In this document: positions 46,835 to 49,892 of the stretch, piece after piece
Numbering within the stretch: position 1 is the stretch's first letter
Layout: the number at the start of each line of letters is the position of its first letter
Assembly (NCBI GenBank): GCA_964482335.1
Contig: CAYZXA010000001.1
Location: 24,983-88,982 of the forward strand
Direction of reading: 5' to 3'
DNA length: 64,000 bases
Source: an uncultured Candidatus Saccharibacteria bacterium
GTDB lineage: Bacteria > Patescibacteriota > Minisyncoccia > Minisyncoccales > MHMH01
Program-made: the position numbers and the translations under genes
Notes under the pieces: model-generated
What the model was told of the DNA's origin: nothing
The model's database searches: none
The model's input: the letters and a program-made list of their open reading frames with translations, nothing else

Positions 46835-48231
46835 ATTTAGAGGAGCTCACCATTACCAAGGCTCATCAAGGATTAAAGAAAAAACAATTCTCAGCTCTTG
46901 AACTTTGCAAAGCATATTTAGACAAGATCGAAGAGGGTAAGGAGGTCCATGCTTTTTTAACAGTGAACGAGAGCTTGGCCTTATCTCAAGCAAAAAAGAT
47001 AGATGATTTAATTGCTGTAGGCAGTGAAATGCCAGTTCTGGCTGGATTGCCTTGCGCTGTCAAAGACAATATTTTAGTTGAGAACGTGAGATGTACGGCT
47101 GGCTCCAAGATTTTAGGCAATTACATTGCTCCCTATAGTGCTACTGTCGTAGAAAAGCTCAAAAGCCAGGGAGCTGTTATTTTGGGCAAAACCAATATGG
47201 ATGAGTTTGCCATGGGTTCCTCGACCGAAAACTCAGGATTTGGAGCAACAAGGAATCCCCATGACTTAACAAGGGTGCCTGGTGGTTCATCGGGCGGGTC
47301 AGCGGCTGCTGTAGCTACTGGCGAGTGTTTATATGCTTTAGGCTCTGATACTGGTGGTTCTGTGCGTCAGCCTGCTTCTTTTTGCGGAGTAGTTGGTTTA
47401 AAGCCTACTTACGGAGCAGTTTCCCGCTATGGCTTGATTGCTTTTGCTTCTTCCTTGGACCAGATAGGGCCAATCACAAAAACAGTGGAAGATGCTAAAA
47501 TAGTATTTGAGGCTATCTCTGGGAAAGACGAGTTAGATAGTACTTCAGTCAGCCCAAAAATAGGGATCCAGAAGTTAAAGAATGTCAGGATTGGCGTGCC
47601 CAAGGAATACTTTGTTAAGGGCATGGATAAAGAGATTGAGAAGATGATCAGAGCTGCCATTAAAAAGTATACGGATAAAGGCGCAAAAGTAATTGAAGTT
47701 AGCTTGCCCCATACTGAATATGCTCTGCCTGCTTACTATATTATTAATCCCTCGGAAGCTTCAGCTAACTTGGCCAGATATGATGGCATAAAGTACGGTT
47801 TTTCTAAAAAAGAGAAATCATTGATAGATGTTTATTTGCAAAGCAGGGGACAGGGTTTTGGCGCAGAAGTTCGCCGCAGGATTATGCTGGGCACTTACGC
47901 TCTGTCATCGGGTTATTACGAAGCATATTATCTGAGGGCTCAGAAGGTTAGAACCAAAATTAAGGAAGATTTTGATAAAGCTTTTAGCAAGGTTGACGTG
48001 ATTGTTACTCCTACTTCGCCAACCACAGCTTTTAAGATAGGCGAGAAAACCAGCGATCCTTTAACTATGTATCTTTCTGATATTTATACTGTTTCTATTA
48101 ATTTAGCTGGTTTGCCTGCTATTTCTCTGCCTTGCGGCAGAATAGGCAAATTGCCAGTAGGCATGCAAATTATTGGCAAAGCTTTTCAGGAAAACATTAT
48201 TTTTAAAGTAGCTCAACTGTATGAAGATTGA
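46831..48231 (+). CDS. gatA: Asp/Glu-tRNA amidotransferase subunit A
   Basis: Amidase signature GGSSGGSAAAVA...GSDTGGSVRQPA. Confidence 0.95.
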   Translation: MNLEELTITKAHQGLKKKQFSALELCKAYLDKIEEGKEVHAFLTVNESLALSQAKKIDDLIAVGSEMPVLAGLPCAVKDNILVENVRCTAGSKILGNYIAPYSATVVEKLKSQGAVILGKTNMDEFAMGSSTENSGFGATRNPHDLTRVPGGSSGGSAAAVATGECLYALGSDTGGSVRQPASFCGVVGLKPTYGAVSRYGLIAFASSLDQIGPITKTVEDAKIVFEAISGKDELDSTSVSPKIGIQKLKNVRIGVPKEYFVKGMDKEIEKMIRAAIKKYTDKGAKVIEVSLPHTEYALPAYYIINPSEASANLARYDGIKYGFSKKEKSLIDVYLQSRGQGFGAEVRRRIMLGTYALSSGYYEAYYLRAQKVRTKIKEDFDKAFSKVDVIVTPTSPTTAFKIGEKTSDPLTMYLSDIYTVSINLAGLPAISLPCGRIGKLPVGMQIIGKAFQENIIFKVAQLYED

Positions 48232-48748
48232 TGTTGATACCATAATTTCATTTCTTACTTCCCAAGAAGTGCAGCAAGACTTATTCTGGGTTAAACTTGG
48301 TTTTTTGATTTTTTCCGGACTGTTAGTGCTTGGTATAATTATTTTAGCCCTCTTTAAAACTCATTATCTGCAATGGCGGTTTTTCCAGGACAGTTTTGAA
48401 TTTTTAACTTACCGCCAGTTTGGTGCCCGGAGAATGCAAGGAAAATGGAGAAAGATTTTGAAGCGCTTGGAAACCGGCCTTGAGTCAGAATACAAAATAG
48501 CCATTGTTGAAGCTGACAATATGTTGAACAATTCTTTGAACAGGATGGGCTATGTGGGAAAAACGCTTGGAGAAAGATTAGAGAAGCTGGCTTCGGCTAC
48601 CATACCCAATATCGACGAGGTTCACCAAGCTCATAAGCTTCGCAATTCTATTGTTCGCGATCCTGATTATCAATTGAGCTTGGAGGATGCTAAAAGAACT
48701 ATAGATATTTATGGAAAAGCCTTTACTAGTTTACAGATTTTAGCTTGA
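48221..48748 (+). CDS. membrane-anchored protein, unknown function
   Basis: One TM helix (LGFLIFSGLLVLGIIILALF) followed by a helical soluble domain. Confidence 0.45.
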   Translation: MKIDVDTIISFLTSQEVQQDLFWVKLGFLIFSGLLVLGIIILALFKTHYLQWRFFQDSFEFLTYRQFGARRMQGKWRKILKRLETGLESEYKIAIVEADNMLNNSLNRMGYVGKTLGERLEKLASATIPNIDEVHQAHKLRNSIVRDPDYQLSLEDAKRTIDIYGKAFTSLQILA

Positions 48749-48773
48749 TTTTTTCTTGAAATTAAAGTAGAAT
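48745..48773 (+). promoter_or_regulatory. putative promoter of the intron-containing tRNA
   Basis: TTGATT, 17 nt, TAGAAT. The -10 ends 7 nt before tRNA position 1. Confidence 0.45.
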
Positions 48774-48780
48774 ACTAGAC

Positions 48781-49053
48781 AGCGCCGTGGAGGAGTAGTA
48801 CCTCACCAGTCTCATAAATTTTTGTGACCTAAAATGGTAACATTTTATGGAAAAATTCCCGAAATTGCTGGGAACCCGTAAAAATATTTTATGGCAATCA
48901 GCAGCCAAGCTTCGACATTTTGTCGGAGAAGGTTCAGAGACTATAATGGGAACACCCTTTTATTTAAGGGAGATGGGATAGTCCGTTCCATTTGGAAACA
49001 AATGGCTAACACTAAAGAAGCTGGGGGCCCCCGTGCAATTCGGGGCGGCGCAA
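48781..49053 (+). tRNA. tRNA(CAU) gene interrupted by a group I intron (exons 48781-48815 and 49018-49053)
   Basis: The joined exons fold as a 71-nt cloverleaf. Acceptor AGCGCCG/CGGCGCA, D-arm GAGG-AGTAGTA-CCTC, anticodon arm CCAGT-CTCATAA-GCTGG, variable GGGC, T-arm CCCCG-TGCAATT-CGGGG. Confidence 0.75.
48816..49017 (+). mobile_element. group I intron, IC3-like (tRNA-type, Azoarcus/Anabaena-like core), 202 nt, no ORF
   Basis: Core strings TATGGCAA..GCAGCCAAGCTTCG and GAAGGTTCAGAGACTATAATGGG match remembered tRNA-intron cores. IGS TTGTGA (48822-48827) pairs with TCAT|AA. P2 has a GTAA loop. P7 is GACTAT/ATAGTC. P9 is CCATTTG-GAAA-CAAATGG. The terminal G is at 49017. Confidence 0.8.
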
Positions 49054-49066
49054 CAAAGATTCTATA

Positions 49067-49095
49067 TTGTCATATTTTTAGACCTACGGTATAAT
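49067..49095 (+). promoter_or_regulatory. putative promoter of the endonuclease-like ORF
   Basis: TTGTCA, 17 nt, TATAAT. The -10 sits in the loop of the GACCTAC/GTAGGTC hairpin (49081-49120) that abuts the ATG. Confidence 0.45.
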
Positions 49096-49121
49096 GAAAG
49101 AATACTTATAACTGTAGGTCC

Positions 49122-49832
49122 ATGGCTAGAATTATAGAAAAAAATAAAGCGCTAAGACTGCGCCAAAAAGGGAAAAGTATAAATGAAATTGCTAGAAGAT
49201 TAAAATTACCAAAAAGCACTGTTAGTGTTTGGTGTCGTGATATTAAACTTACTTCGGAACAGATCGGAAGATTAGCAAAAAGACAAAAATCTGGAAGTTA
49301 TAAAGGAAGAATGAAATTTTTAGAAAGAGTAAGAAAAAAAAGAATGGAAGAGATGATAAGATTGAGAAAGGAAGGAATTCAAGAGATTGGTAAGATAAAA
49401 AAAAGAGATTTATTTGTTGCTGGAATTGCAATGTATTGGAGCGAAGGAGTGACTTCTTCAAATAGCGATGAAGTAAGTTTTTCTAATTCAGACCCCAAAA
49501 TGCTTCTTTTGATGTTGAGATGGTTTAAAGAGATTTGTGGCGTATTAGATAACCAATTTGTTATTCAAATCAGAATCAATAAAATACATAAACAGAGAAT
49601 AAAAGAGATTGAAAATTATTGGTCTAATATAACAAAGATTTCATTAAGCCAATTTACTAAAACGATTTTAATAAAAAGTAAATTGAAGAAGATTTATCCT
49701 AAGACCGACGCTTATTACGGTACTCTAAGAATAAAAATTCGACGCGGTACTCAATTAAGAAGAAAGATTAATGGTTGGATTGAAGGATTGGCTAGGCGGG
49801 GTAGCTCAGTTGGTAGAGCAAAGGACTCATAA
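49122..49832 (+). CDS. free-standing HTH + LAGLIDADG-like homing endonuclease candidate
   Basis: N-terminal HTH (GKSINEIARRLKLPKSTVSVW). LFVAGIAMYWSEG helix followed by the EVSFSNSDPKMLLLMLRWFKEICGV beta-alpha pattern typical of single-motif LAGLIDADG enzymes. The last 38 nt are the 5' half of the next tRNA. Confidence 0.55.
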   Translation: MARIIEKNKALRLRQKGKSINEIARRLKLPKSTVSVWCRDIKLTSEQIGRLAKRQKSGSYKGRMKFLERVRKKRMEEMIRLRKEGIQEIGKIKKRDLFVAGIAMYWSEGVTSSNSDEVSFSNSDPKMLLLMLRWFKEICGVLDNQFVIQIRINKIHKQRIKEIENYWSNITKISLSQFTKTILIKSKLKKIYPKTDAYYGTLRIKIRRGTQLRRKINGWIEGLARRGSSVGRAKDS

Positions 49833-49867
49833 GCCTTAGGTCGTGGGTTCAAGTCCCACCCTCGCCA
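49795..49867 (+). tRNA. tRNA with anticodon CAT (elongator Met or lysidine-Ile2), canonical, no encoded CCA
   Basis: GGCGGGG-TA-GCTC-AGTTGGTA-GAGC-A-AAGGA-CTCATAA-GCCTT-AGGTC-GTGGG-TTCAAGT-CCCAC-CCTCGCC-A. Confidence 0.88.
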
Positions 49868-49892
49868 CATTAAAATTTTAATATTGAATTCT

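Follow-up and report, generated by a model that had tools for sequence, protein, structure and literature searches.

The 64-kb window analysed here (the whole stretch of 64,000 nucleotides from contig CAYZXA010000001.1, with positions counted from its first letter) contains at 48781-49053 a gene for tRNA(CAU) that is interrupted by a group I intron. We read this locus, with a probability of about 85%, as a functional gene, most probably for an initiator tRNA, of a Parcubacteria-group bacterium related to Nealsonbacteria, split between positions 36 and 37 by a 202-nt ribozyme without an internal open reading frame (ORF). The reading is carried by the family membership of the intron, its exact boundaries, a covarying secondary structure and the existence of intron-less orthologs. 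The coordinates of all features are collected in Table 1.

An Rfam scan of the whole 64 kb returned a single match to RF00028 (Intron_gpI), on the plus strand at 48803-49005, which spans the model in full length (positions 1-253); its score is 91.8 bits, where the gathering score is 50, with an E-value of 2.9e-22. The first-pass annotation, made from the letters alone, had called a group I intron here, and all sequence features that it listed were found in their places. When the exons it had delimited (48781-48815 and 49018-49053) are joined, ARAGORN calls a tRNA(cat) of 71-72 nt; run on the 64-kb window, the same program calls three ordinary tRNAs and not the interrupted tRNA(CAU) gene. The same mature sequence can be obtained from three splice registers, with both junctions at 0, +1 or +2, and the proposed register (48815/49017) is the sole one in which the 5' exon ends in U and the intron ends in G. 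This last base, the terminal guanosine (omega-G) G49017, is invariant in all 15 members of the intron family. An insertion between positions 33 and 34 was also considered for this intron and rejected, as it would leave no omega-G and give the anticodon AAG.

The junction can be read directly in two syntenic orthologs that lack the intron (L130:947-1018 and L133:3108-3179, with Rfam tRNA scores of 57.3 and 55.4 bits, respectively): both carry CTCATAA uninterrupted across the predicted splice site, in agreement with the insertion after anticodon position 36 that had been proposed. Compared with these orthologs, the joined exons of the window show compensatory changes in all four tRNA stems, and the three sequences share the 1:72 mismatch, the D-loop AGTAGTA and the T-loop TGCAATT. 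At both intron-less loci, a second tRNA(CAU) and a tRNA-Asp follow within 10-30 nt. The intron itself is found again in a 90%-identical relative (L129, GCA_964438155.1), where two double compensatory changes fall in P2; orthologous introns at L135, L137 and L139 score 77-87 bits with RF00028, and the same intron allele is present in several metagenomes. A scan of GTDB genomes with an intron-core pattern gave no close relative of the window intron among the matches listed, which were mostly Ile2 introns of Pseudomonadota and chance matches; one match, in Komeilibacteria (L066), was set aside as a chance match without an intron.

The secondary structure was examined in a family set of 15 distinct introns from related loci. 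Their lengths range from 201-296 nt, and they share 70-86% identity with the window intron, the value varying with the alignment method. With the P1-P10 structure written onto their alignment, standard pairs fill 92.5% of the cells, versus 33-47% after a shift of the 3' partners by 1-3 columns, and both sides change at 36 of the 62 pairs; the observed measures were reached by none of 500 shuffles. Covariation is found in P2, P3, P5, P6a, P8 and P9, while P4 and P7 are almost invariant. The conserved group I core, with its P3-P8 and P4-P6 domains and the P3/P7 pseudoknot, is thus present and covaries. P7, in which five pairs are invariant and one changes from U-A to C-G, is expected to be the guanosine-binding helix, pseudoknotted with P3. 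Next to the nearly invariant P4, four of the five basal pairs of P5 change on both sides, and the three distal pairs of P5 are weaker (72% paired). The minimum free energy fold of the intron alone has a z-score of -3.95, equalled by none of 200 shuffles, and independently recovers P2-P6, P8 and P9. The helices already singled out in the first pass (P2 with its GUAA loop, P7 at 48939-48944/48978-48983 and P9 at 48988-49005 with its GAAA loop) all pair. As side observations, one P4 pair is a C.A mismatch in four family introns, and some lineages carry insertions of their own: an extension of P5 by about 60 nt (L137, L139, L228, L214), an extra hairpin in the P1 loop (L139, L228) and an insertion of about 90 nt in P6 (L203).

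The pairing between intron and exon is visible in the family as well. In P1, GUGA (48824-48827) pairs with UCAU of the exon (48812-48815), which places the wobble pair U48815.G48824 at the splice site; this U.G pair is present in 15/15 family introns. Exon and guide change together in all 15: an exon loop CUCAU goes with a GUGA guide in 6/6 and a loop CCCAU with GUGG in 9/9, so that the guide tracks exon nucleotide 33 via P1 (UCAU/GUGA versus CCAU/GUGG). The Rfam alignment sets P1 one base off this register, with U-U at the splice site; because of the covariation in the family, we favour the register U48812-A48827, U48815.G48824. The internal guide TTGTGA (48822-48827) had been proposed to form both P1 and P10. 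Its P1 part, with the wobble pair, is borne out by covariation in 15/15 introns, and its P10 part can be kept as a candidate: its first two bases, UU (48822-48823), are possible partners of A49018 and A49019.

For splicing, the following course is proposed. The precursor would fold into P1-P9, and pairing of the guide GUGA with the exon UCAU would put the U48815.G48824 wobble at the 5' splice site. This site would be cleaved by a free guanosine nucleotide held in P7, after which the terminal G49017 would occupy the same site and the exons would be joined, restoring the anticodon loop CUCAU/AA (the slash marks the junction). Should the organism have no initiator tRNA gene other than the interrupted one, all its translation initiation would depend on the self-splicing of this ribozyme.

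The identity of the host tRNA was judged from its family, in a sample of at least 120 metagenomic loci (L141-L260), collected with a pattern on the 3' half of the tRNA and independently of the presence of an intron; they contain at least 82 distinct mature sequences, and all counts for this family below apply to the loci listed. A 1:72 mismatch and an A11:U24 pair are marks of bacterial initiator tRNAs, and three G:C pairs in the anticodon stem are their third hallmark. The window tRNA has A1xA72, with no Watson-Crick pair at this position, and A11:U24. In the family, position 1:72 is CxA in 70 sequences, AxA in 25 and U-A in 7, i.e. a mismatch in 95/102, and A11:U24 is found in 93/102. Of the family sequences, 8 have three G:C pairs in the anticodon stem, 66 have two and 28 have a single one. 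About half of the distinct sequences have C33, a base otherwise known from some eukaryotic initiators. By identity, the family is closest to fMet references (0.61-0.85, versus 0.56-0.73 to the adjacent tRNA(CAU)), and its commonest acceptor stem, CGCGGGG/CCCCGCA, is that of the fMet references in the supplement of a recent survey (PMC13011429); the window itself has AGCGCCG/CGGCGCA. On these sequence characters, the host is probably an initiator tRNA and not of Ile2 type. We call it probable because the hallmark of three G:C pairs is missing in the window and only partly present in most relatives.

Alternatively, the host could be an elongator (tRNA-Met) or, as in Azoarcus, a tRNA-Ile2(CAU), and the intron an Ile2-type 36/37 intron in a new phylum. 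The insertion site and the loop CUCAU/AA are the same as in at least 54 Ile2(CAU) 36/37 introns of other phyla, and the anticodon stem of the window lacks three consecutive G:C pairs. However, the 1x72 mismatch and A11:U24 are conserved over the at least 82 distinct family sequences, the commonest acceptor stem of the family matches the fMet references exactly, and a second canonical tRNA(CAU) adjoins in every locus. The identities of 0.61-0.85 to fMet references compare with 0.63-0.74 to the Ile2 reference, the latter from much shorter alignments for two of the three queries. We therefore consider an elongator or Ile2 host unlikely. Of the parallel to Azoarcus tRNA-Ile(CAU) drawn in the first-pass annotation, the 36/37 site is retained, and the host type gives way to a probable initiator in view of the 1x72 mismatch, A11:U24 and the fMet references.

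Several points weigh against reading the locus as a functional, most probably initiator, tRNA gene split by a ribozyme. The 2-bp P10 is weak, as its pairs are formed in 10/15 and 13/15 introns and show no covariation. At the anticodon-stem positions 29-31:39-41, the window has A29-U41, G30-C40 and U31.G39 in place of three G:C pairs. The window covers 64 kb of the genome, and another initiator tRNA elsewhere is possible. With respect to the ORF that follows the interrupted gene, two intron-bearing loci lack it, ten intron-less loci have a related one, and the association statistic is uncorrected for shared ancestry. Finally, catalysis itself and the role of the spliced tRNA as the cell's initiator are what we infer from this material. 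It is highly improbable that the intron is in decay and does not splice, and that the tRNA it interrupts is a pseudogene: although the interrupted gene is not called by ARAGORN, the ribozyme core is nearly invariant and the peripheral helices stay paired by compensatory changes in 15 lineages, the exons retain a perfect cloverleaf and covary with the orthologs, the same allele recurs in several metagenomes, and the guide follows exon nucleotide 33, which makes no sense unless P1 is in use.

Table 1. Features of the interrupted tRNA(CAU) locus and its downstream gene (window coordinates).
Feature	Position	Strand	Evidence and remarks
Promoter-like element TTGATT-17-TAGAAT	48745-48773	+	Consensus scan, 9/12 matches; putative function
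5' exon: acceptor strand, D-arm (7-nt loop AGTAGTA), 5' anticodon stem, loop C32 U33 C34 A35 U36	48781-48815	+	ARAGORN
Group I intron, 202 nt, no internal ORF	48816-49017	+	RF00028, U-1/omega-G rule, intron-less orthologs
Internal guide UUGUGA	48822-48827	+	P1 exon covariation; UU = candidate P10
P2, 9-bp hairpin with a single bulged U and a GUAA tetraloop	48828-48850	+	7/9 pairs change on both sides
P3 5' strand (partner 48948-48952)	48856-48860	+	5/5 pairs change on both sides, 100% paired
P4 (48865-48871/48898-48904) around P5 (48876-48883/48887-48894), A-rich J4/5 and J5/4	48865-48904	+	Covariation, minimum free energy fold
P6 (2 bp) and P6a hairpin	48905-48932	+	P6 invariant; P6a basal pairs 5/5 change on both sides
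P7 5' strand GACUAU (partner 48978-48983)	48939-48944	+	100% paired
P3 3' strand	48948-48952	+	Covariation
P8 hairpin	48955-48970	+	4/5 pairs change on both sides
P7 3' strand AUAGUC	48978-48983	+	Covariation alignment
P9 hairpin, GAAA tetraloop	48988-49005	+	5/7 pairs change on both sides, 99% paired
omega-G, last intron nucleotide	49017	+	G in 15/15 family members
3' exon: A37 A38, 3' anticodon stem, variable loop, T-arm (loop TGCAATT), acceptor strand, A72, A73	49018-49053	+	Joined exons, orthologs
Promoter-like element TTGTCA-17-TATAAT before the ORF	49067-49095	+	11/12 matches; conserved in related loci
Inverted repeat GACCTACGG (49081-49089) / CTGTAGGTC (49112-49120)	49081-49120	+	Arms covary among loci, tolerate G.T
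236-aa ORF, N-terminal helix-turn-helix and C-terminal domain with possible LAGLIDADG-like fold	49122-49832	+	Candidate free-standing homing endonuclease/maturase
Second canonical tRNA(CAU), elongator Met or Ile2	49795-49868	+	Rfam, ARAGORN; overlapped by the 3' end of the 236-aa ORF

The host tRNA belongs to an unusual type that is widespread in metagenomes of the candidate phyla radiation (CPR), with a 7-nt D-loop AGUAGUA that lacks G18G19, a T-loop UGCAAUU in place of T-Psi-C, and no encoded CCA; in the window, A72 is mismatched with A1 and CCA is likewise not encoded. The same or a similar CPR tRNA(CAU) also carries a different group I intron at 33/34 (L143, L030:7628-7841, L126:608-834), so that the 36/37 and 33/34 introns are separate insertions and the gene was invaded at two sites.

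With regard to the subgroup, the label Azoarcus/IC3-like given in the first pass holds for the compact architecture: P2 is present, P2.1, P5abc and P7.1/7.2 are absent, and P9 is short with a GNRA loop; 3 nt lie between P7 and P3', and the loops L2 and L9 are GUAA and GAAA. Sequence similarity does not bear the label out in the same way, since identity to IC3-labelled introns lies at 0.63-0.74 and that to IA-labelled Asn introns of Patescibacteria at 0.59-0.74, and assignment by pairwise similarity was dropped as not discriminating. Because identity fails to separate the two, we describe the intron as compact and Azoarcus-like, with IC3 supported by its architecture rather than by similarity. 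The Azoarcus-type Ile2(CAU) introns ('Ile2.5Ug', IC3) agree with it in the 36/37 site, the loop CUCAU/AA, a short P1 with a GUG(A/G) guide, the size (202 nt versus 197-204 nt in the compact members L043, L053, L057, L067 and L078), the P1-P9 helix set, GNRA loops on P2 and P9, and the lack of an internal ORF. They differ in that the window host is initiator-like and not Ile2, comes from Patescibacteria and not Pseudomonadota, and is followed by a conserved ORF, and identity to them is only 0.60-0.74, which puts them no nearer to the window intron than other tRNA introns of bacteria. The shared loop CUCAU/AA suggests how an Ile2-type intron could pass between different CAU tRNAs.

The cyanobacterial and other tRNA-fMet introns ('fMet.2Ug', 33/34) share an initiator host, if the window host is indeed one, and the nearest sequence outside the family is an IC3-labelled fMet 33/34 intron from Desulfobacterota (0.74 identity). 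Yet their site lies three nucleotides upstream and they use another guide. Some fMet 33/34 introns are described as carrying an endonuclease that is specific to the part of tRNA-fMet around the anticodon (Bonocora & Shub 2001, as cited in PMC3984707), whereas the endonuclease-like gene of the window lies outside the intron.

The suggestion that no such intron had been described in a reduced, CPR-like genome is outdated, as tRNA group I introns of Patescibacteria were published in 2020 and 2026. The preprint by Williams 2020 (bioRxiv 10.1101/2020.01.27.920355) lists four classical classes, all IC3 (Leu 34/35, Arg 36/37, fMet 33/34 and Ile2 36/37), adds 17 new ones and gives 0.49 interrupted tRNA genes per genome for assemblies from unnamed phyla. 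Nakagawa et al. 2026 (PMC13011429) report 25 intron-bearing tRNAs in 95 complete Patescibacteria genomes, with no Patescibacteria tRNA intron assigned to subgroup IC. These introns resemble the one in the window in phylum, kind of element and mostly ORF-less state, and the tRNA of the window, like theirs, would be missed by standard tRNA finders. They differ in host and site (Asn, Asp and Tyr at 35/36, Met and Phe at 33/34, Thr at 36/37), and the window intron lacks the additional stretch that the published Asn introns contain between P7 and P3'. None of the 25 cases listed combines a CAU tRNA with insertion at 36/37, and an fMet 36/37 class is possible in other phyla or in draft genomes. Relative to this list, what is new is the combination of host and site, not the phenomenon; a conserved, possible endonuclease gene next to the host tRNA is likewise absent from the survey (PMC13011429).

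The family, present in about 9% of the sampled CPR loci with this tRNA, extends the known diversity of Patescibacteria introns. It also has a practical side: standard finders miss the interrupted tRNA, so that genomes of the lineage may appear to have no initiator tRNA, which would affect estimates of their completeness, and spurious ORFs are called inside the intron. The 67-aa ORF at 48891-49094, already dismissed in the first pass, does exist and is regarded as spurious because it overlaps the RNA of the intron and tRNA; ORF finders and public gene callers put short ORFs of this kind inside the intron, another being one of 44 aa (L001:3627-3761).

The 236-aa ORF sits between the interrupted tRNA and the next tRNA; L130 and L133, which have no intron, do not have the ORF either. 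Its product is one of more than 447 related Patescibacteria proteins with a length of about 227 aa. In the window it enters the next tRNA(CAU) by 38 nt (49795-49832); its homologs are 227-228 aa long and stop before or just inside the tRNA, so the window ORF appears to have lost its normal stop. The intron lies immediately upstream in 4/4 ORF-homolog loci looked up, one of them with a different upstream context. A strict one-to-one link, as suggested by these first four loci, is ruled out by the sample of at least 120 loci, which were chosen regardless of the intron: intron and ORF occur together at 5 loci, the intron without the ORF at 2, the ORF without the intron at 10, and neither at 73. 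This corresponds to an odds ratio of 18 (Fisher p 0.0012), a statistic that ignores shared ancestry. All nine intron-linked ORFs fall into one clade with 54-84% identity, to which none of the seven ORFs at intron-less alleles belongs. All three states are seen among near-identical host tRNAs (L133, L227, L196), and where the intron family is found it is usually accompanied by the downstream helix-turn-helix (HTH) gene.

For the protein encoded by the ORF, searches with Pfam, NCBIfam, PHROGs and PDB-HMM matched the HTH alone and gave no LAGLIDADG profile hit. For the C-terminal domain, nothing was found by Pfam (E up to 10), PHROGs, NCBIfam or phmmer/hmmsearch against PDB, divergent family members gave no C-terminal match in Pfam, hhalign was negative against one sequence and against a 27-sequence LAGLIDADG_3 family (probability 0.16 for the family), and Foldseek against PDB returned nothing significant. 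The family does, however, share a motif ...AGIA(M/L)YW(S/G)EG, whose Glu-Gly (E108-G109) is invariant in 32 ORF sequences. This would fit a degenerate LAGLIDADG helix with the Glu at the catalytic acidic position. A LAGLIDADG-like nuclease fold is possible, with no more than moderate support, and the product may be a free-standing homing endonuclease. One hypothesis is that the gene propagates through double-strand-break repair and takes the intron with it, or that it targets the intron insertion site.

Two accounts of this gene have to be weighed. The downstream HTH gene could be a maturase-like splicing helper, or an ordinary DNA-binding regulator linked by chance, and no mobility factor at all. 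This is quite conceivable and falls somewhat short of even odds. On the other side, the gene is patchily distributed among near-identical host tRNAs (L133, L227, L196), its conservation over several candidate phyla is 54-84%, the presumed site of the catalytic acidic residue is occupied by the invariant E108-G109, and the same spacer region holds other endonuclease-type ORFs of the GIY-YIG and LAGLIDADG_3 types. Taken together, these features fit a selfish element better than a housekeeping regulator. More tentatively still, and with distinctly unfavourable odds, many CPR initiator tRNA genes of the Parcubacteria group might harbour a two-part selfish module, in which the ORF-less 36/37 ribozyme and a free-standing HTH/LAGLIDADG-like endonuclease gene of a previously unrecognised family, placed directly downstream, move together by double-strand-break repair (collaborative/trans homing or co-conversion).

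The closest frameworks for such a pair would be, by analogy, collaborative (trans) homing and intronless homing by free-standing endonucleases, as known for mobE/I-TevIII of phage T4 and for F-CphI and the psbA intron of a cyanophage (PMC3984707, PMC2790892, PMC6083498). As in those systems, an ORF-less intron stands beside a free-standing endonuclease-like gene that adjoins the host gene, and intron and gene are present or absent among related alleles. In contrast, the phage enzymes are proven nucleases with mapped cleavage sites, whereas here the nuclease is putative and the setting is a bacterial chromosome. If the two-part module is real, no earlier system of this kind would be known from a cellular chromosome, as opposed to phages. 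The linked gene offers a lead on how ORF-less bacterial tRNA introns spread.

Other endonuclease-type genes are found in the fMet-Met-Asp tRNA cluster of related loci (L137:3323-3940; L139:3195-3449; L179, L246). They comprise an ORF with a Pfam LAGLIDADG_3 domain between tRNA-Met and tRNA-Asp, and small GIY-YIG ORFs that follow the tRNA or the HTH ORF.

Both genes of the window locus are preceded by promoter-like sequences, of which that of the ORF is close to the consensus. The one upstream of the tRNA ends 7 nt ahead of its 5' end, and transcription may therefore begin at the mature 5' end or right beside it. In front of the ORF, the -10 box lies inside the loop of the inverted repeat, whose 3' arm abuts the ATG, and the repeat may have a regulatory role. 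The layout could let read-through transcripts hide the start codon and promoter-initiated ones expose it; equally, it could be an operator.

The wider neighbourhood agrees with the lineage assigned to the locus. The named homologs of flanking proteins all belong to the Patescibacteria group (Nealsonbacteria, Portnoybacteria, Staskawiczbacteria), and G+C is 32-42%. The upstream gene for a 175-aa protein (48221-48748) has homologs in related metagenomic genomes, and the order GatC, GatA, 175-aa gene is retained in contigs whose homologs of this protein are 69% and 54% identical; there the uninterrupted tRNA(CAU) of L130 and L133 comes next. The 175-aa protein has no Pfam domain, its gene overlaps the end of gatA, and it precedes the tRNA(CAU) in every syntenic relative examined (L129-L138).

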